From Podarcis cretensis (Eukaryota), in contig OX638151.1 in NCBI GenBank assembly GCA_951804945.1, forward strand, positions 63,922,001-63,986,000: a stretch of DNA of 64,000 bases, read 5' to 3'. Each line of letters opens with the position of its first letter. Within the stretch, counting starts at the first letter, position 1. Under the pieces are notes generated by a model that did no database searches, was not told the DNA's origin, and saw only the letters and a list, made by a program, of their open reading frames with translations. This document shows, in pieces, positions 6,227-63,587 of the stretch. The position numbers and the translations under genes were made by a program.

Positions 6227-46196
<39,970 letters not shown>

Positions 46197-50717: not shown

Positions 50718-50839
50718 TCAGGTGTCCATATGTCTGACAGCAATACTGAGAAGCTCCTGTGTTTCTGCAGTTTGTTGACGGACTTGGTCAAGGTGCTTCT
50801 TCAGTTGGCTCTGGTTGAATGCTAATGAAAACTCTGCAT
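50718..50839 (-). CDS. Vac8-like exon 14: DAEFSLAFNQSQLKKHLDQVRQQTAETQELLSIAVRHMDT-stop
   Basis: ttttag acceptor, TGA at 50720-50718; ORF 50718..50918. Confidence 0.88.
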
Positions 50840-53800
50840 CTAAAAAATAGGGAAGCAACAACTCAACTTCTAGACCTGCACAACTCATCATATGTGTACA
50901 TCTTGCCCTGGTCCACAACTATACAAAACATTGGAGAGAGGTTTTGTTCTCCTGTCTTGCATTCAGCTTGGATCTACAAAAATCTGACATTCATATCAAA
51001 GCCAAATTGACCAACTTTGAGAACAGGAGACTCACACCTAATATATTCCTTGTTGTTTTAATACTTTCCAAGAGTAAGTTAGATACATCCTTTGATCATT
51101 TACTTGTTCAACAATGTCTCCTGAGAATCTTGCTTCCTGCTTTCTTTGCTAGGGGTATTTCCCCACTTTCAGACACAGAGTGTGATAATAATCTAAGCCA
51201 TTTATCAAACATTTATGCATGGAAGTTATTTTGCATTCCATGTTAACCAATACATTTTTTAAAAAAGTAAGTCAGGTTTGTTTGGTGCTGGAAGGTGCAT
51301 GCATAACTACTTTTCCACTGTGATTTTTTAAAACTGCCAAAAAAGAAGACTACTCCCCACTTTTTTATGAGAACCGTAAATAGCTGTTTCCAGGATTCAT
51401 ATATGCGATTATGAGAACAGATTCAGTTCCAGTAGGAAGCTTGTAATGAATACGGCAAATGAGCCTGTATAAAGTTCTGATTGCATTCTCAGTGAAATGA
51501 GAGTCAATTAACTTTCCACCAAACCTTTTTTAAAGGAGGACTTTGGTTTTCATTACCAGAAACAGGCAGGACTCAGCTGCGCATTATAGCTGCGGTGCTT
51601 CTGGTAAGTACTAATGAGCTTAGCTGTTATGCCATAGCATAGGAATCCCATGGGATGTTATGTGGCGAGTGATACAGCAGTCCATACCTTTCTGTAATAT
51701 GCAGAGAGTGGATATGCCCAGATGCTGAAAGCGATTCTCTTGATGAATAAGATACTTGATGAGGTATTGCTGTACCTTGCTCATATGAGATTTCAACAAA
51801 GACACCACCTCTTCTGTGCAATTAATTTGGAGACAGGAATAATTACAAAACTGAATGCACGAGGCAACATTTTACACACTTAACCTGGGAGTAAGTCACT
51901 GAACAAAGTGGGATTTCTTCTGAGTAAACATGCACTGTAAAATGTTGATACCCCATTACATTGCTGATGCACTACTTGGTTTTCTTGTTACTAAGTTGTT
52001 GGGTGAATGACAAATTATAAATTGGTATTCATAGTTTGGGAATGCTTATGATAATTTTATGGTGGGAAATGTATGCTTGGGCAGATGTTTAGTGCGATCA
52101 TTTTTATTGTGTTTTTTATATTTGTTTACTATGTGATTTGCCTTGAGACCTTAATAAATAAAGATTTTATAATGCTAATTAATAATATTCAGAATTCATA
52201 TATACCAATCATGAATGCCAGTATGGTATGGAGAATAGAGCCTTAAACTTCAGGTTTGGTTCATAAAGTTGAAGTTTGTAACTCAGAATAATAAGATTTC
52301 TTGCTGATTTTGGCCGCTATAATAATAATATACACTCACTGTGATTATTCTGACTCTAACACTTATAACATCTGTTATTTTTAAATGTTATATGGTGCAT
52401 TCAACAGAAACATTATGTTTATGTTATCATTGGTTATTCAAATTAAGCATCACTTCATATGGCACACAGTGATGTACAAATATTTTAGCGGCTTTGTGCA
52501 GTGTTGCTATCTTCAGTAGGGAAATGTAATACTGAGAAAAGGATTTACACAAGCAAGACAGAAGCTCCTGCCATGAACTCAACATGTATTCTTTACACCC
52601 AAAGGAGTCTGCTGGTGTGGGACAACTGGTAGATGCAGCTGCCACTTAGTCCAGAAAGAAAAAAAAATCTTAGGGAGTCCTATTGTAGCCCAGGGAACTC
52701 ACTGAAAACTATCCTAGAATTAGCAGGATTGGAAAATAAATAAAAGTTTTGTCAAAGCTGACTGGTACAGTGTTCTCCCCTGCTATTCAACCTGTTTGGG
52801 CCCATGGGACTTCTGTTGTTGTCACTTGAGTGATATCAGGCATGCTGGAAATGCAAACATCAGATCTTTTACATTGATACGTACTGTGCTGTAGGAGGTG
52901 TTTGATCACAAGGGCAGCGTGGAACGAAAGCTCTGCTTGTTCCACTTGGCCAGCCAGTGTTGCCAGACTGCATACCACTGAGTCATCCACCAATTCCAGC
53001 ATGCGCACTGTGGCTCCCTCTGGTGGTAGAAGAGCAGAGTAAAAGACTAAATCAGCAGAGTTGAAATAAAAGGAGACAAATGAACAGGCCTAGGGCCAAG
53101 GCTGAAAAGAGACTAGCAGAGCTTCAGAGGCCAGTAAAATGGATTTCAGAAGACTGAAATACATACATAGAAAGGGGGGTGTCAAAATGTTCAGAAGCAG
53201 ATATAAGCGGGAAGATTCCTTAGGGAGGGTTTCACCAATGGGAAATGTGATGCTCTGCTGCCCTGCTGCTCTGCTACCTCCCTTTCCATATATTCAGCTA
53301 GTAAACACCCAGAGGGTACCATGTTTGCCTCTGCTGGTCTAGAAGCACTAGAGAAATTACTAGCAATGTCAACACTGTTACCGATACAACACTTTGAGTT
53401 GGGATTAAAATCACTTGTCTGCTGTGTTTCACTCCTGTTAGCAGCTCTGTTAGCTATGCAGCCAGTGGGATAACGTAGAACTGTGGGAATCTGTTGATTT
53501 TACGACTGCCCTTTGGTTCCCTCTGTGCCCCAAAATTGTAAGGCTGCTGCAACCCTGTGCACACTGACTTTTGCATAGGTAAAGGCTACAGCACTACCTT
53601 CTGAGCAGACATGCATAACACTGTGCTGTAAAGTTGGCAGCAGCAACGGAAATCAATGAGTACAAAATGTGTGTGCTATCAGCCCATCCACTCAGCACTC
53701 TGGATGCCCCCTTACCATGTTTCATCAGGTCAACAAGAGAAGACATCACACAGTGAAGAGATTCCTCTTCTAGAAAGTCTACACTCTGGACAGCTTGAAA

Positions 53801-56800
53801 AAGTCCTTCAATGCATGGACTTTCTATGACTCTCTGCAAATAACAAAAATAGATGATGTTGTTACATTCATTCTGAAAATTGTGGTGTCCCCCCGCCACA
53901 ATTATAGATACCAAGCTCTTAGTTTGCCTTGGGCCTTCAGGGCTGTGCCTATTCAGCTGTTAAGCCCAGAAATGTGTGCAACAAAGGCATCTGTGGGGAT
54001 TTAATCTATGCAAATGCATGTTCTATTAAATGCCCTAGTTATGCATCATGACGCCCTGAGACTGTCCCACCAGGAGAGTTCAAATTACACAAATGTGCTT
54101 GAAATTAATGAATACAGAGTAAGTCTGCAATGATATGTGTTACAATAGCCTTCATTTCACAAGAAGCCATCAAGTGTGTGATAACAAGGCAATCTGGGAG
54201 ATGGTATGAGGAGCCAAGAATATATGGCATATTTCCTGCAAACATTTATCCATACACAGTGGGTTTCCACTTTCTTGAGCAATTATCATCTAAGGCCCTT
54301 CTTTGTGTGCCTCCTCCATGAGAGGTCTGGAGGATGGCAACATGAAAATGGGCCTTTTCTGCAGTTGCTCCCTGTTTGTGGAATGCTCCCACCAGGGAGG
54401 CTTTCCTGGTGCCTTCATTATATAGCCTTAGGTGCCAGGCAAAAATGTTTCTCTATAGCCAGGTCTTTGGTTGGTTGAGCATTCTATGGCCTTTTAAATG
54501 TGTTTGTGGGAAGGGGTGTTATTGGTTGGTTTTTGCTTTTGTTTTATTATGTATTTTGTGTTCTCATTTTGTATTTTTATGTTGTGAACTGCCCTATGGT
54601 CTTCAAATGGAGAACAGTATACAAATTTAATGAAGGAGAAGGAGGGGGGGGGAGGAACAGGAACAACCTAGTTGAAAAAGCATGTATACCAACAAAGCCA
54701 AATTTCCAAAAAGCCTACAGTGAAGGCGTAAAAGTCACAACTTGCTTTTTATTTGTTGGTAAGATTTTTCTTGTGTACTTTTTGAAACACGTGGTCATTT
54801 ACTCCCTTGAATGAAGCAAAGACGATGTTTCATTTTAATTATAAGGTTAGCAGATGTCCCTGTTTCCCGGGGACAGTCCCCAGATTTACAAATCAGTCCC
54901 CATACAAAATCCATTGAAGTTGAAAAGTGTCCCCAGATTCATTGAAAAAAATCTGGTAACCTTATTTTAATATCACTTAGTGAAGTGAAGCCTTCAGAAC
55001 AATGTGTAATCCTGAAAGGGAGACTTGGCACTCACCTGTATGCTTCTGGAAAGGCTGAGATTTTTAATAAAGCAGGCAGCGTGACCTACAATCACTGGGT
55101 CCATTTTCCAGGTGAGCAGCAGCTTCCCTACCGCCTGCAGCACTTCATCACACATCAGTGCATCCTGCAAAGGGAAAGGTAGCCAGTGAGTAGCTGAAAT
55201 GAAGGCAGCAGAAGAGACATGGTTCTACCATACCACTGTGAATGGGACTAGAGATGGGTGATTGAGATATATAGATATCTATATCACTTAATTGTTAATA
55301 AAATCTCAAAGCAGGTAAAAAAAGAATAAAAACAATAATCAGTAAAAAACATCCCCAATTAAAACAAGTATTTAAAACATTTTTTAAAAAATTAAAAATC
55401 AGCAATAAACTAAAACCAGAAAACACATGCCAATATTCTGCATGTCCAGACAAACCTTTTGAAACAAACATGCTTTTCTTTTTTAAGCAGGCACCAAAAA
55501 GAGTAGAGAGAATGAATTACTAAGGAATCAAAGAGATATGCTTTAAGTTTTTAAAACTCTTTACATTTAGGATGAACTGCAACAAGTGTATGGCAATTTG
55601 GGAGCTACAAAGCTGGGATGGAGAATTATGAAAAGCTCCACAAATTGTTGTCTCTTTGTGTTTCAGTCCCAACTCAGGGCAGCAATGCAGAGAAATCAAG
55701 CCTCCACTACCTCCAAACCACATCAGATGATCTTGAAATGTGTGTGTGCATCCAATGGTACATGCAGGATTTGACTTTCCTGTTCCACCACAAACCTCCC
55801 ATGTTACAACCTCCATTCATTTTATTGATGCCTTTGTCCCACCATATAGAGACTCATATATCAATCCCACATCCGAATGCAGATGGCAAGTTTATATTAC
55901 AAAGATGTGGGGCTTTTCTGTTTGTTAAGGAATGAAGGTGCTATGAAGTCAACCAAACCCAAAGTCACCAAAGAACAAATGATTTCTTCTTCCCTAGGAA
56001 CACAGTGTAGTGTTGGTAACCACTGAAACATTAGTTCATCTTGATTGGAAATGTTAGCTTTGTCCCACAGTTTGTTTTCCTGCTGGGGTTCCCATGGAGA
56101 GCTCCTTTTCTCCTTCACTTGGAATTCAGGTCAGAGCAGAATGGGAATCCTTGAAAAGGTCTTTAAAAAAACAACCCCAGTCTGGAGGGCATTGAAACCA
56201 GTACTCTGGGCAAACCAAGATGAAAAGCTGACCCAACAGAAGACAATATAAACATCTCTACTGAGGATTAATTGTTCAGGTTTCCTCTGTCACAGAACAT
56301 TTTCTCCAATGCCAAAGCAGCTATACCATCCATCACAACCACAAATGGATATTTGCTACACAGAATGTGAATCTCAAGAAGACAAATTAGAACCCAATAT
56401 GATTATAATCAGAATTTGTTCCCAGCGCTCCCTTTCCAACCTTATTTCTGGATATGCACATCATCCCACACTTTCAAATGCATGCTGAAGCCTTTTCAGA
56501 ATGAATTTTGAATTATTGTCTACTGATCACCTGGCCGCGTCAATCTGTCATTTTAAATGTGTTACCTTTGATGAAACTTTCGTCCACTGTCATCTTTCAA
56601 GGTTGAGCTGCCTCGGAGCATTACGGCCATGCACATTTGACTAAAGCTTACAAGGCAAAGGGTAATATAAAACAGAAATGTGTACCTGGTTGTCTGGGTG
56701 CTGGGATAAAATCCGGAGAAGAATGATGGAATTGTGCTGAGTGTCTTTCCTGTTAGATGCCAGGAGAGGGAGCAGGTGAGACGGGATCTCCAAAGCAACG

Positions 56801-57185
56801 ATGCTGGTCTGACCACTCTCTGTTTGGAAAATGAGAAGGTTGCTCAAGGTCATGTGTGTAGATCAATAGAAGCTGCTTTGGAGAAAAGGATTTGTGAGAG
56901 AAAGGGGCCTCCTCTAGACTGACTCAATCAAGTCAGCTGGACTTCACAGATCAGGCAATGTTATGTTATGACAGTATAGAAGTTAAACTTTAGGTTCTGA
57001 TTTTAATGAAAAGTCAAAAGAAGATGAAGACAAGAGGGTTGGACTGGTGTTTGTAGAAAGGCACTGCTGGAAAGAATTTTCTTCAGAATCAGGGGACTGA
57101 AATTGATAGAAAGGGTACAAAGAGTTGTGTTTCTGTAACTTTGGTTGGGATTGTGGTTGTGCAAAATCAGCTGCTAGGCGCAAGT

Positions 57186-57217
<32 letters not shown>

Positions 57218-57365
57218 CAGTGCTTTTTTCGGGGGGAATGTATAGGGGCACTCTCATTTTCCTATTCATAGGAATACTATTGAAATACTGCCCCTCAATG
57301 CGGCCAAACGTAGATTCACAAAATGTTTAGGAGTATGCATGCCCCTGCGGCACCCCAGAAAAAGC

Positions 57366-57396
<31 letters not shown>

Positions 57397-60300
57397 CCTT
57401 ATTCTTGTCTACTTTATCTTCACAGAATTGACAGTTTAAGAATGGTAAAAGGAAGTGTATGGATTTGTAGTTATAATCCATATTAATGATCTTGCTTGTC
57501 GATTTAAAACACAGAGAGACATCTTTCATTACAAGCACATGAGCAAAAATGTCAGTGGCCAGGGATATTTTTCACCAACTCCTTCTTCAGTCTCTTTTCT
57601 CCTTTTCTAGATGGTGTAAAACTGCCACATGATCTTTCTCCTGCCCCAAACATCTGTGGCAGAAATGTGCCTTGAGCATTGTAAGGTATTGGTCAATCAA
57701 GTTTTACTAATCTTTACATCAGTCTGAATGCTGGATTGGTTTGCAGTCACCTTCTCTAAAAAACTGAACCCGTGATTGTTGGTATACTTTAGAACAACAG
57801 TACTGTCACTCTCACAGCCTCTGGTAACTGAAGGGTTCATTAACTTTCAAAAAAAAAAAAGTCACACCATCCACGCGCCTGAAACCAAAACATGGTATTC
57901 ATCTTACTTAAAAGAACAAAGAGTGACTTGAGGACATTCCTTCCAGAGGCTAGACTGTACAAAACACAGGAAGGAGGGGGGTTCTATTTTTGTATGTTTT
58001 AAGTGACTGCAATTTTTCGTTTATTAGCATGCTAGGACTGTAGTACTTACCACTCGCGGCTAAATTCCTGAGACAGACACAAGCCTGGTTGGAAACCTAG
58101 TTGCAGAAAACAAAGAAATCAGAACCCAACAGAGAAAGAACTTTTGGCTGTGAAAAGGCCACAAAGCTGACTGGTCCACAATAGCTTTGTGCAATACTTG
58201 CTAAACCTCCAAAATGTTCTGACAGGATTATGGGTCAATGATGGGTAAAGTTAAAATGTAAGCATGTCCTCTGTGGCAACATGAGGCAAAACTAAGCCTT
58301 TAAAGCCAACTGTGAGAGTGCCCCATAGATATCTGAGAGATACTCAAAAAAGCGCCACTTATGGGTGCCTAAAAGTACAAGGATGTGTAGCCTTTCAGAA
58401 GAACAAATTGCTCTTGGTTTAAGGTGCATACACACCATATATTTAAAACATATTTAAAACACATGACAATCCCCCCCAAAAAGGAAAGAATAATGGAGCT
58501 GTAGTTTAACAGTGCTACAAATGGAAGCTCTGTGAGGGGTAAACTACAGTGCTCAGAATACTCTGAGGGAAGTCACGTGCTTTAAATGCATGGTGTGTAT
58601 GCAGCCTTAGTGAACAATCCAGTTAATTTTGCATTTGTTTGGGAAGATCTGTAATTGTGAAATTTTACTCTCCACACTACCTCACAATCTTCTCCAGGCA
58701 GAGATTAGGAAAAAGCCCATCCCTATATTCCCAGGCCATCACTGTGAGAATGAAAATATTGAACCAAGAGATCTCACCATTATTTAAACATGGAATCCCC
58801 TCTGACTGTAGGAGATTCTGAGTTTGATCTCTTAGAAATTCATGGAAGATGCCACATCTAGCTAACTCCAGCCTTTGTGTATTCTTGTGCCCCCATGCTG
58901 AAGAAAGCATCTTTTCAGTCATTTCCCTATACACAAGATATTTAGCCTGCAGTCCTAAGCATACCTTACTTGGAAATACACCCCACTGGTATCAAAATAA
59001 TATTTCTGAATAAACCAGGGGGGCTGTTAGTAAAACAAACCTGCATAATCCACAGCTTTACCTTGTCCACAGATGAAGACAGAAGGAAAAGGAGCATCCG
59101 CAGAAGAAACCTATCACAGGTTTGGAGCATGGCTTTATGGTGCTGCGAGTTTGTGGCCATGTTGCTCAGAGCTGCACAGCTATAATACTGTAAGAAAGAG
59201 AAGTGTTGTGATTTTGAGAAAGGAAAGCTTGTGGCCAAGGATTCTTAAACTGTGGTCAAGACCTCACAGCGAATGAAAGGGACCATGACTGATGATGGCG
59301 TTCCTAGGGTGATAAAATTGAGAGAGTATTTACATACAGCATCTCCCTGCATTTTCTGGATTGGCACTGTAGTACACCTCCAGGAGTTTTGGGAATGTCC
59401 CAGGAAAAAAGAATATTTGTCCAACGAGACACAACTGTGATTGCTACAGTCCACACTGTGTAGAGAGTCTGGATGTCTAAGAGTCAAAAAAGGGGGACAA
59501 TACTGCATCGGTGAGATGACCAGATCCCTTTTCTTAACAAATCACTCACACACTATTTTGTCCCCTTCTGCTAGGCATACTGCATAGATTCTGCTAGGCA
59601 AATGGCATTCCTTGCATTCATAAAATACTCATCATGAGGCTGTTTACAATTCTCAGGAGTCATAGTAAGAACAGAATAAAAGTCTACACTCCAGTCATGT
59701 ATTTTACATGTTTGCATTTCTCTTGCACTAGCCTGTTTGAAGATGAGAAAGAAGTATTTGTTCAGTTCTTGAATCTCAAACAGGTTAGTGCCTATTAATA
59801 GCTATTTCCAAACAAAAGTTGAGAACAGAACTGAGGAACTGGAATACCCCCTGGCTATTTTCTTTAACCCTACAACAAATCTGAACTATGAAATGAGCAC
59901 CTTTCTTCAAGCTGCAATGACCTGTTTTTTCATTTCACTAAAAAGCTTAGCAGTTCATTTCCAAGGTGCACAAACATATGTAGTACCCCCCTCCAAGCAA
60001 AAGTATGTGCAACACCATTGAATTACTAATTTCTGGAAGTTAAAATGTTAAAAGACTACTGTCTCGTCTATCTTTTCCTGCATCTGTAGGTTCAGTTGAG
60101 CAGCTGACTATTTCCACAGCTTTGAATGCTCAAAAACTTCTGTTTTAATGTCAAGTTTACCTGTACTTCTGAATCGGGAGACTGTAACAAAAGGGTGAGG
60201 ACTGGAAGAGCACCTTGTCGAAACAAAATTTGCTGAATCCGTTCTGCAAGGGAAGAGTGGTATTGCTAATGAGCTATTTTGACCAAATGAACATTCTCCT

Positions 60301-63300
60301 TATCATCACTGCATAGATAAGAGCTAAAAATAGCATTTTCTGGGAATAAGCCCAATTGGAATCAATTGGCTTTCCCGCTGAGTAGACATGATTTAGCATT
60401 GTACTTGAAGTAAAACATTTCATTTTAAAGAAAACAATAGCTTTGACGATAAGTTTCCCTTGCCACAAATTTCTGTTTCAATGCACTTGGTCCATTGAAA
60501 TAAATCTCCTGCAGCCTAATACCTGATTGTGTGAGGTTAAAAATTGCTCCAACTGCATTTTGTTGGACTCTTGGATCATAGGATTTAGAAAGGGCCAGTA
60601 AGGGTACCACTCCTCCTGCTGCTGCGATGGCTTCATGGCTGACATCTGGCAAAACAACAGGGCAAAATAGAAATCAATGAGGTTTCTTTGGAGGAAGAAG
60701 TATCCATGTTCCTCCAGGCACACTTTAAAGAACAGAGAGTGGACAGCACAAAACAGTTGCAGCATATGAGTTGGGGGTCCTGGGTGCCTAGTGGCAGAAT
60801 GAATAATGTTAAGAGTTTACCATCAGGTTTTTGTGAAGAAGCTTATTGCTATAGGTCACCTTGAAGCAAAACCTGACTTTAGAAAGTACACTTCATCATT
60901 TATTAATATCTGAACCCAGGACTCCAAGGCCAACTTTATATTTCTTGCACAGTATGGGGCCAGTGACTAGGCAGTTCTTAGGCAATCCTGGAGGACTGCA
61001 TTGGCTCCACTTGTGTGTCTGTGAAGCACCAAGCGTGTCACCACCCAGAGCCATCCAGGTAAGCTGCAGTCAAACTGGTGTCAGAAGTGTGCCTCCACAA
61101 GCTCTGCCCCACTACACTGACCACGTCTAGTTATAGCATACCAATGTGAATAATCCACTCTGCTCGCAGAATTCAGCTCTTCTTGATTCAGAATTTCTAT
61201 AACGATAAGGCACATCATTACCTCTCAATCACAAGGTGTGGATGTGACATTGTCCCTGGACCTGATTATTGCGCTATGCTTTGGACATGCTCCTCACCTG
61301 TGACAGCTAGTGTCATTATGCATGCACAGGAATTACACTGGACTGTGGCATCTTCAGACTCAAGCAGTTCCAGAATTGGCTCAATTAGATCCATTTGGAC
61401 GACATGATCCTTGGTTACTGTTTGTCAGTAAAAGCAGGAGTAAATGTTATGTTTACAGTGCCTTTAATTCAGCTATATACTGGAGAGAGAAAAGGATTGC
61501 CATCAGCGCACAATATCACTAGTGCATCTTACACCGGAATAAATGATTTCTCACCCCTTTGGTACGAGAAGTAAGCAAAACCCATCCTCTGAATGAATGC
61601 TCCCCCCCCCCCCAAAAAAAACCACATTTTATCAGGGCAAACATCCATCCTACTGATTATCACTTTTTAGTATAGGAATTTATATCCTGCCCTTCAAATA
61701 AAATACCAGGGCAACTGGACAGTGGTAGTTCCTAAGATCACAGCTGATGCTGATGGAGACTTCAGGATATGGTATCTTGGGCATTTACTCACCACTTCCT
61801 TCCAGTAAGAAATTCACAAGGGACGACGATGAAATCTGCTGAACCTCCAAGTCATTAGACTTCAACAAAGCATAGTATATTTCCAGATGCTCTCGAGGCA
61901 GCTGGATGTTCACTGCAAGAATGAGATGAAATGCTGATTGCAAAAAGCTCTTCTGGAACACTTGTCCCTTACATCTTCAAACACTTGATGCTTTTGGAGC
62001 AACACCTAGATGGCCTACTTTGCCTTTCAAAATACCTTATAGCCCTCCTTTCAGCTGTCTGTGCAAACTCACGTGAAAACTAAACCTGTATTACTTATTT
62101 TTACTAGCCCCTCTTCTGCCAACCTCTCATATGAGTAAAAAGCCAGCTAGCACTCGCCCACCTCTATAAAATAATAAAATGGGAGACTAGTAACTGCAAA
62201 AGTTGTGCCACATTATCTGGGCTCCAAGTAAATATCCACAGAACTTGCATTAGAAGGGGCTAGACCCAATTCACACATGCTAGGGAACCAGTAAGACTGC
62301 CTTGGGCACAACTCAGCTACGTTTGGGAGAAATTGTTTTGCTTCTCCAGGTTTCTACATTTTTTTAAAAAAGAGAGTATGGAATGGATCTTACAGTTTTG
62401 ATGATTTATGTTCAAGTAATAGAGAGCAGCAGACTTTTGCAAGCCGGGGTTCTCTGAAAACGCCAAGGTCCTCAGAGCCTCTAGGGAGACCTTGCCAAGT
62501 GGTGACATTTCAAAACCTTAAGAAAGATGTGATAATAACAGAGTCTGAATTGTGTCAGAAGAAGTTAAATACCTGAAGAGTCCAAATGCACAGAATTTAA
62601 AGCAACAGATAAAACACGACAGAGACAAACTTCCATGTAGAAATATTCTCTCCTTTAAAATTAGCATACTAGATAGAGCTGAATTTTTGCAGTCCAAACC
62701 TCATGTGAGAAAAAAGTTGTTATATATGCCAGTTTGTGAGAGTAGTTGGGACATTCCAAACTTGGATTTCTGTTACTGTATTTAGCAAACCAGCTTAGCC
62801 ATGCTATTTCCTTGATTATCAAGGATGAAAACAAAAGATGGGAGCACTTAAGAGTTGGAAGAAGTGGACAGCATTCCATTTGATGTCTTTCTGTTTTCAA
62901 ATAATAAATTCAACTCCAATCCTCTAATACCTAATAGGTTTTTACAGAGAGTATTTCAATGTTGGCTTAGGAAAGTGCTCGTGCTTGTAGCAAAAGTACG
63001 ATATGTGTTTGTTAGTCTTTTAAGATGCCACAATATTTCTTGTTGCTTTTATGCAAGAGGCTAACAGGTCTACCCCTTGCTATGATGCCTTTTGTAGAAC
63101 TGGGATTTCAAATGCTGAATGAGAGTAATTTAATCAATCGGCCTGGAACTGGGATCCACTGCTTTGTCTGAATATTTGGTGCTGGTGAAATACTGGTTCC
63201 CCCATTCTCCCTTCATTGCTTATAAGAGCAGAAGCATAAACAGCTCTGTGTCATTCACTTTATACGATCACTGAACTGCATGATCTTAAACAAAGCAACC

Positions 63301-63587
63301 GAGCTCAAGTAAACATCTCTCCAACTTTGGCTGCCCCACCTTCATAACAGAAACTTCTCACCTCTTTCAATGTGCTGCAGAAACTCCTGAGCAATCTCCT
63401 CTTCCTGGGTCCGAAGGGCAGGCTTGTATAGCTGCTTTGTTTTAAAGTTTTTCCGTTTCAGACAGGGGCACTCATGGATCTGACCCAAGCACTCCTGAAT
63501 ATCCTGCACCAGACCCGAAGACAGTGTTTTTACTGAGAGAGCCAAGTCACAAAGCAACTGGACACACTTTGTACACAGCTGACCCAT
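50718..63587 (-). CDS. Vac8-like armadillo-repeat protein, complete 14-exon CDS, 1731 nt / 576 aa
   Basis: 14 GT-AG exons join in phase with no stop or frameshift. ATG is in good Kozak context (atcATGG). Translation is colinear with recalled yeast Vac8 (e.g. KSYDPRVQQNAVGAIFNLTQS vs [36 protein letters not shown] vs [15 protein letters not shown]). Confidence 0.92.
51688..51813 (-). CDS. Vac8-like exon 13: KEVVSLLKSHMSKVQQYLIKYLIHQENRFQHLGISTLCILQK
   Basis: gcacag/gtatgg, 126 nt; ORF 51620..51808. Confidence 0.9.
52885..53019 (-). CDS. Vac8-like exon 12: EGATVRMLELVDDSVVCSLATLAGQVEQAELSFHAALVIKHLLQH
   Basis: caccag/gtacgt, 135 nt; ORF 52787..53008. Confidence 0.88.
53716..53833 (-). CDS. 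Vac8-like exon 11: RVIESPCIEGLFQAVQSVDFLEEESLHCVMSSLVDLMKH
   Basis: ttgcag/gtaagg, 118 nt; ORF 53594..53914. Confidence 0.88.
54290..54630 (+). mobile_element. L2-like LINE 3' remnant (similar remnants near 1000-1200, 4400-4830 and 11500-11650)
   Basis: gggccttttctgcagttgctccctgtttgtggaatgctccc...tgtgaactgccctatgg...tatacaaattta. Confidence 0.5.
54842..54964. mobile_element. Short hAT-like MITE
   Basis: TIR TAAGGTTAGCAGAT ... ATCTGGTAACCTTA, with imperfect AT-rich 8-bp flanks. Confidence 0.7.
55036..55164 (-). CDS. Vac8-like exon 10: DALMCDEVLQAVGKLLLTWKMDPVIVGHAACFIKNLSLSRSIQ
   Basis: ttgcag/gtgagt, 129 nt. Confidence 0.9.
56686..56819 (-). CDS. Vac8-like exon 9: ESGQTSIVALEIPSHLLPLLASNRKDTQHNSIILLRILSQHPDNQ
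   Basis: aaacag/gtacac, 134 nt; ORF 56641..56853. Confidence 0.9.
58051..58096 (-). CDS. Vac8-like exon 8: [15 protein letters not shown]
   Basis: aactag/gtaagt, 46 nt, phase 0-1. Confidence 0.92.
58420..58609. mobile_element. Palindromic MITE remnant
   Basis: aaggtgcatacacaccatatatttaaa ... tttaaatgcatggtgtgtatgcagcctt. Confidence 0.65.
59062..59187 (-). CDS. Vac8-like exon 7: [42 protein letters not shown]
   Basis: ttacag/gtaaag, 126 nt; ORF 58966..59238. Confidence 0.94.
60161..60243 (-). CDS. Vac8-like exon 6: [28 protein letters not shown]
   Basis: ttgcag/gtaaac, 83 nt, phase 1-0. Confidence 0.93.
60523..60645 (-). CDS. Vac8-like exon 5: DVSHEAIAAAGGVVPLLALSKSYDPRVQQNAVGAIFNLTQS
   Basis: tgccag/gtatta, 123 nt; canonical ARM repeat; ORF 60425..60652. 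Confidence 0.95.
61298..61417 (-). CDS. Vac8-like exon 4: [40 protein letters not shown]
   Basis: aaacag/gtgagg, 120 nt. Confidence 0.92.
61793..61912 (-). CDS. Vac8-like exon 3: LNIQLPREHLEIYYALLKSNDLEVQQISSSSLVNFLLEGS
   Basis: ttgcag/gtgagt, 120 nt. Confidence 0.92.
62394..62516 (-). CDS. Vac8-like exon 2: GFEMSPLGKVSLEALRTLAFSENPGLQKSAALYYLNINHQN
   Basis: cttaag/gtaaga, 123 nt, phase 1-1. Confidence 0.92.
63362..63587 (-). CDS. Vac8-like exon 1: MGQLCTKCVQLLCDLALSVKTLSSGLVQDIQECLGQIHECPCLKRKNFKTKQLYKPALRTQEEEIAQEFLQHIER
   Basis: ATG 63587, donor gtgaga, 226 nt; ORF 63342..63587. Confidence 0.88.

Follow-up and report, generated by a model that had tools for sequence, protein, structure and literature searches.

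A lizard orthologue of yeast Vac8 with a conserved core predicted to bind peptide and variable basic sites

A gene on the reverse strand of a 64,000-nucleotide stretch of the Podarcis cretensis genome (contig OX638151.1, positions 63,922,001 to 63,986,000; the whole stretch is referred to below as the window) is this lizard's one orthologue of yeast Vac8. It has already been annotated automatically, but it is an unstudied member of the Vac8 family; our literature searches turned up no functional study of a vertebrate Vac8 gene. We think it probable that the protein acts as an armadillo scaffold with a lipid anchor and holds an extended peptide mainly through a core formed by armadillo repeats 3 to 6 (ARM3-6), with R358 and K401, two of the three residues that align with a basic triad in yeast Vac8, forming a variable rim, and R358 probably regained.

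Gene structure and orthology

The gene was delimited by tblastn and splice signals, which set the following exon bounds:

50718..63587, minus strand: Vac8-orthologous gene, 14 coding exons, 576 residues, open frame with GT-AG introns
63587-63362, 62516-62394, 61912-61793, 61417-61298, 60645-60523, 60243-60161, 59187-59062, minus strand: first seven exons
58096-58051, 56819-56686, 55164-55036, 53833-53716, 53019-52885, 51813-51688, 50839-50718, minus strand: remaining seven exons (stop included)

The frame is open across all 576 codons and 13 of 13 introns are GT-AG. The protein differs from its counterpart in Podarcis muralis (P0002) at 12 residues (98% identity). In the joint table, contigs of relatives, presumed to represent RNA (4 of 20 runs), bridge 12 of the 13 introns, and at one of these joins two letters differ; the flanks of the thirteenth are adjacent pieces of a single relative contig, again presumed RNA. 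With P0002 as query against the genome there were 13 matches, every one at this locus: one locus among 18 scored candidates.

The best sequence match in the PDB is yeast Vac8 itself (HMMER, 5xjg_A), aligned in a single stretch over residues 84-533 with an E-value of 2e-50; the next matches are a designed armadillo repeat protein (2e-32) and beta-catenin (5e-13). A single exon used as PDB query was without match. An AlphaFold model of P0002 (mean predicted local distance difference test score, pLDDT, 88; predicted template modelling score, pTM, 0.79) gave the same answer in Foldseek, where ranks 1-5 are all Vac8, with TMq scores of 0.69-0.73 versus 0.49-0.56 for beta-catenin. A profile was made from five Vac8 proteins of non-animals, and on it the scoring frames of the window gene all map in order (10/10).

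The order of the Vac8 tree is that of the species tree: fungi with Ichthyophonus come first, then sponge, invertebrates and cyclostomes, and finally jawed vertebrates, with vertebrates at 100/100. Trees were made from 51 and 54 named rows after exclusion of the triad columns; rows lacking a name are omitted, as are four that were redundant or partial; long branches are flagged and there is no non-Vac8 outgroup, so that the trees show congruence and not the exclusion of other families. The named representatives (30 of 150 were looked up) include, among vertebrates, coelacanth, sharks, bowfin, bichir, teleosts, lamprey and hagfish, and beyond them amphioxus, a hemichordate, molluscs, an annelid, a nemertean, a sponge, Ichthyophonus and early-branching fungi.

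It might be argued that the protein is merely a generic armadillo protein carrying an automatic Vac8 label, given that identity to non-vertebrate members is about 30% and that many unrelated long armadillo proteins score highly in a representative search. We find this barely credible: it is already largely refuted by the full-length match in a single stretch, the colinear exons, the species-like tree, and the N-terminal Gly and Cys residues, H1/ARM1 residues and C-terminal motif that are common to Vac8.

Several exons each encode approximately one repeat. Isoforms about 40 residues shorter are annotated in many homologues, which fits the skipping of single whole-repeat exons (window 60523-60645 and 61298-61417). 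Introns at window 54300-54970 and 57170-57410 contain repeats (high-depth interspersed elements and CA/GT microsatellites).

The groove, the ARM1 surface and the predicted N-terminal anchor

The residues that matter for this part of the argument are listed below; lizard residues carry their own numbering and yeast residues are named as such.

59161..59187, minus strand: Y266, Y267 and N274, equivalent to yeast Y226, Y227 and N234 (aromatic pocket and essential Asn)
60536..60559, minus strand: N226 and N233, equivalent to yeast N186 and N193 (backbone-binding Asn); kept in 38/43 and 40/43 named vertebrates
58064..58066, minus strand: N318, equivalent to yeast N277 (essential for Vac17 binding); kept in 119/127 tetrapod rows and 36/43 named vertebrates
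62394..62516, minus strand: exon 2, ARM1 with A89, L90 and L93, equivalent to yeast A51, L52 and L55
63564..63587, minus strand: N-terminus with Gly2, Cys5 and Cys8, a myristoylation and S-acylation anchor predicted from the motif only

The tetrapod set comprises 127 rows (131 were fetched and four fragments shorter than 440 residues dropped); it includes isoforms and is bird-heavy.

All seven residues of the ARM3-6 core (yeast N145, N186, N193, Y226, Y227, N234 and N277) are present in the window protein, and each is kept in 36-41 of 42-43 named vertebrates. At the equivalents of the Tyr pair, 41 of 43 named vertebrates have Tyr or Phe at either position, and 39 of 43 have Asn at position 274. 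Identity among vertebrates, calculated with approximate repeat bounds, is 0.63-0.70 for repeats 1-6 versus 0.45-0.47 for repeats 7-10.

In yeast, Atg13 binds ARM2-6 of Vac8 tightly through Asn and Tyr residues and that interface is critical, while Atg13 mutations at the ARM7-10 interface, including that of a His bonded to yeast R317, leave binding unaffected (PMC7469494). Backbone carbonyls of Vac17 are held by yeast R317, N318, N277, N234 and H196, and mutation of either N234 or N277 abolishes Vac17 binding (Kim et al., PMC10161063). What vertebrates conserve, namely the ARM3-6 Asn ladder, the Tyr pair and R317, thus matches the region most important for both yeast ligands.

Individual lineages depart from this pattern. 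Geckos have Tyr at the otherwise conserved N226, and caecilians and milkfish have Lys at N274, an essential residue in yeast (P0003, P0006, P0009 and P0082 for the two cases together).

The ARM1 residues are also preserved: A89, L90 and L93 are kept in 38/41, 41/42 and 40/42 named vertebrates. Their yeast equivalents form a surface for H1 docking and self-association (PMC7469494). The H1 positions E62, F69 and L70 (yeast numbering inferred) are kept in 38-40 of 41-42 vertebrates. Gly2 together with two Cys among the first 12 residues occurs in 97/127 tetrapod rows; the acylation sites of yeast Vac8 are G2, C4, C5 and C7 (PMC9143426). The vertebrate N-terminus (window 63470-63587) also has a predicted 38-residue helix before H1 and further Cys residues at 33, 40 and 42.

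These features suggest how the protein would work. Gly2, Cys5 and Cys8 would anchor it in a membrane, probably, by analogy, that of endolysosomes; the conserved Asn ladder, the Tyr pair and R317 of repeats 3-6 would do the main peptide gripping, in a backbone-directed and antiparallel manner; and an H1/ARM1 switch would operate.

The three basic sites across taxa

The initial annotation placed three motifs on the reverse strand in register with the basic triad of yeast Vac8, and in this it was right. They lie in the consecutive exons 8, 9 and 10, the numbering is exact, and the spacings are 41 and 43 residues:

58067..58069, minus strand: R317, equivalent to yeast R276, in CLRNL, codon AGG; the only well-kept member of the triad
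56713..56715, minus strand: R358, equivalent to yeast R317, in LLRIL, codon CGG; lizard-type state, probably regained
56710..56712, minus strand: I359, equivalent to yeast N318; groove Asn lost in vertebrates
55063..55065, minus strand: K401, equivalent to yeast R359, in FIKNL, codon AAA; variable

In the HMMER alignment to 5xjg_A, R317, R358 and K401 face chain positions 267, 308 and 350, that is, yeast R276, R317 and R359; the offset of +9 follows from a construct of residues 10-515 (PMC7469494), and positions were counted by hand. Three long helices of the P0002 model (306-319, 347-361 and 390-403) each have one of these residues at their C-terminal end, where it directly precedes the armadillo Asn position. 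In yeast, R276, R317 and R359 are reported to make up a 'cationic triad' for gripping peptides of Nvj1 and Atg13. A 'cationic groove' of yeast Vac8 is mentioned in PMC9143426.

The further claim, that the triad is conserved, did not survive comparison across taxa: it holds for lizards and not for vertebrates, and sites 358 and 401 vary among orthologues, an outcome that the annotation itself had named as refuting it. Site 317 is Arg in 115/127 tetrapod rows (the others being Asn in four frogs, six gaps and two misaligned models) and Arg or Lys in 35/43 named vertebrates. At site 358 the same rows have W 79, R 21, Q 18, C 4 and gap 5; at site 401, K 100, Q 12, R 5, E 4, other 3 and gap 3. Site 401 is Arg or Lys in 25/43 named vertebrates and undergoes 15 letter changes on the 54-row tree. 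As many as 74% of the columns of the tetrapod alignment are at least as uniform as site 358, and 59% at least as uniform as site 401.

All three sites are basic in 18 of the 117 tetrapod rows that cover them (17 lizard rows and the turtle Emydura). Among the 43 named vertebrates 13 have this combination, and 12 of those are lizards. The figures outside vertebrates are 4/5 for non-animal proteins and 7/8 for named invertebrates (5/6 plus sponge and annelid), with each Arg followed by Asn. This Arg-then-Asn arrangement fails in the window protein, where I359 replaces the Asn. Asn at site 359 is found in 0/43 named vertebrates, 6/6 invertebrates and 5/5 non-animal proteins, and its loss is one change on the tree.

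At site 358 itself, Arg is present in 14/14 named non-snake lizards (geckos, skinks, lacertids, anguimorphs and agamids) and in 1/29 remaining named vertebrates; W, Q, C, S, N or H occupies the site in the other 28 of these 29, and in hagfish. Among fishes, lamprey has N and hagfish H; sharks, bowfin, coelacanth and 4/5 teleosts have S, and Fundulus has C. Among tetrapods, frogs have C; caecilians, 3/4 turtles, crocodilians, birds and tuatara have W; snakes have Q, and Emydura has R. Scored as basic or not, the site changes five times on the tree, against nine losses (a hand count) if Arg were unbroken down to lizards, and therefore Arg358 in lizards has probably been regained; the history was read from counts of changes on the tree and from counts made by hand. 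On this view the R-N pair of repeat 7 would have gone in the vertebrate ancestor, with a Ser-type residue taking the place of Arg and a single loss of Asn; most tetrapods carry Trp at 358, and lizards and one side-necked turtle would carry Arg anew. The CGG codon of R358 is one transition from a Trp codon.

It is quite unlikely that Arg358 persisted without a break in the ancestry of lizards while other groups acquired Trp, Cys, Gln and Ser again and again, in part through CpG decay. Arg in Emydura speaks for it, and W, Q and C are indeed products of CpG decay from Arg codons; but Ser and Asn are not, which leaves unexplained the N of lamprey, the H of hagfish and the S of sharks, of bowfin, of coelacanth and of four of five teleosts, in addition to the nine losses against five changes. 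Even if it were true, repeated loss would show the site to be dispensable.

A possible, if somewhat doubtful, alternative is that the triad is functional specifically in lizards: the ligand changed in squamates, Arg358 was selected and a patch of three basic residues was rebuilt. The constancy of Arg358 in all 14 named non-snake lizards speaks for this, as does the presence of all three basic residues in 12 of them; further, given what is established on CpG mutation, a CGG codon would decay fast if neutral. Snakes, however, have Gln at 358 and agamids Gln at 401, and the Asn beside 358 was not regained in any of 43 vertebrates. Birds keep Trp just as steadily, so that the site may merely tolerate long flat side chains.

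Several of these and other observations weigh against a scaffold whose grip lies in ARM3-6 and whose basic rim is variable. R358 may be under selection in lizards, where it persists despite its CpG codon and where all three sites are basic in 12 of the 14 species. Arg may be older among tetrapods than plain counting suggests, and its regain may date back to the origin of the group, because a single CpG-type change turns an Arg codon into one for W, Q or C; codons at site 358 are known for this genome only. The Asn ladder is incomplete, with the equivalent of yeast N152 kept in 0/42 vertebrates and that of H196 in 1/43. Lamprey, hagfish and several teleosts (P0167, P0183, P0142, P0143, P0145) have lost much of the ladder besides, and their groove may have begun to decay or been put to a new use. 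Several turtles, caecilians and sharks are without Gly2; anchoring in such species may rest on S-acylation. The main counterweight is that Jeong and colleagues reportedly found the triad in 2017 to be necessary for recognition of both Nvj1 and Atg13.

Partners, ARMC3 and known systems

The same annotation proposed that the groove still binds an extended acidic peptide, with ATG13 as a candidate partner. That it still binds an extended peptide is very likely. The acidic part is not supported: of 11 Atg13 residues reported as contacts or mutated, none is acidic, and yeast R317 is reported to bond an Atg13 His and a Vac17 backbone carbonyl. Nor was ATG13 borne out as partner. The Vac8-binding part of Atg13 lies in residues 522-738, and the portion from 522 to the end is reported to exist only in yeast (Park et al., PMC7469494). 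The F-x-A-x-x-x-F spacing of the critical yeast residues F678, A680 and F684 occurred in 0/118 vertebrate ATG13 tails by a crude pattern test (120 homologues were fetched and 118 tails examined).

The lizard does have an ATG13 gene. A Pfam ATG13 search of the genome returned nothing real, and the gene was located through its neighbour F2; a further candidate, L007, was rejected as not being ATG13.

Contig C1, ~51.99-52.01 Mb (L025-L027), minus strand: lizard ATG13 gene, near F2

We regard it as very unlikely that the triad was inherited and goes on binding ATG13 in the yeast manner. In its favour are the exact alignment of positions, the preservation of the core groove, and the long disordered and partly acidic tail of lizard ATG13. 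Against it, the triad is incomplete in 99/117 tetrapod rows, and the binding region and spacing are as just described; moreover, ATG13 tails are 89-96% identical overall among lizards, birds and mammals, though site 358 differs and mammalian Vac8 is not among the matches listed. To rely on a conserved triad and ATG13 would mislead mutagenesis, for which N274, N318, Y266/Y267 and R317 are better targets.

The partner is thus probably not ATG13. Nvj1 is confined to Saccharomycetes (PMC6240307), and Cryptococcus is reported to be without Nvj1 and Vac17 (PMC12734321). Because distant fungi and invertebrates (chytrids, sponge, molluscs and amphioxus) keep the full Arg-Asn triad and should lack the yeast ligands, the triad would serve another, older ligand. 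Yeast Vac8 also binds Atg11 and phosphatidylinositol 3-kinase (PI3K) complex I (PMC9735501, PMC10337603). Since these are the yeast counterparts, our tentative best guess for the vertebrate partner, by analogy and rather unlikely in itself, is the autophagy PI3K complex I or FIP200.

The existence of an organiser like Vac8 in animals has been posed as an open question (PMC8664900, where ARMC3 is a potential Vac8 homolog), and current papers give ARMC3 as the orthologue or homologue of Vac8 in mammals (PMC9735501; bioRxiv 10.64898/2026.10.05.756849; PMC12859697), which makes the matter one for both autophagy and lysosome biologists; vac8p and armc3 have been placed in separate clades (PMC3141441). 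The identity of the window gene with ARMC3 was considered and rejected: it lies in the MAP7-BCLAF1 interval and a separate ARMC3-like gene is present on another contig.

35780..36019, plus strand: exon of a MAP7-family gene that lies tail to tail with the Vac8 gene and serves as a marker of synteny (above the Pfam MAP7 cut-off, E 4.7e-13)
Contig C12, ~23.03-23.07 Mb (L038-L042), minus strand: second armadillo gene, beside an MSRB-family gene

The C12 gene is one that we take to be ARMC3, from its ARMC3-like N-terminal sequence and from its position beside the MSRB-family gene. Its frames are out of order on the non-animal Vac8 profile, unlike those of the window gene. Two of its exons searched against the PDB did not name ARMC3; one matched Vac8 (E 6.5e-16), which shows why ARMC3 can pass for Vac8. 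For the chicken protein, clusters of fungal Vac8 rank higher in the Atlas than ARMC3.

Gene order around the Vac8 gene is MAP7-family, Vac8 (on the opposite strand), BCLAF1-family and MTFR-family; in human, MAP7 and BCLAF1 are presumably adjacent. No mammalian Vac8 stood among the matches listed (77; best 120 of 211) or among the 30 named representatives; the ATG13 search, by contrast, was full of mammals. The gene has likely been lost in mammals.

On the wider history we are evenly divided: animals would have a genuine Vac8 lineage reaching from sponges to birds and lizards and lost in mammals from the MAP7-BCLAF1 interval, with ARMC3 as a paralogue; the ancient ligand would be other than the yeast ones; the vertebrate ancestor would have remodelled the half of the groove formed by repeats 7-10; and lizards would later have rebuilt the basic patch. 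With a true orthologue in chicken, frog and fish, the animal Vac8 question becomes directly testable in standard non-mammalian models.

Among known systems, beta-catenin and importin-alpha share the fold of Vac8 and use helix-3 Asn residues to bind extended peptide backbones; their matches to the lizard protein are far weaker and partial, and they are not known to have an N-terminal Gly/Cys anchor. ARMC3 has armadillo repeats in common with the Vac8 gene, and the lizard genome carries both. The window gene belongs with the vertebrate 'vacuolar protein 8-like' annotations (chicken LOC421690; Latimeria XP_006007785), the chicken protein being 62% identical to P0002; LOC421690 appears as a table row in a pituitary transcriptome (PMC5148799).

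The closest system is yeast Vac8 itself (PDB 5XJG, 6KBM, 6KBN and 7YCJ). The lizard protein differs from it in about 40 additional N-terminal residues, predicted as a helix; it has no equivalent of yeast N152, H196 and N318, and the equivalent of yeast R317 varies across vertebrates. The two have in common their length class, H1 followed by about 12 armadillo repeats, and N-terminal Gly and Cys residues, and they match at ARM1 (A51, L52 and L55) and at yeast N145, N186, N193, Y226, Y227, N234, R276, N277 and N360.

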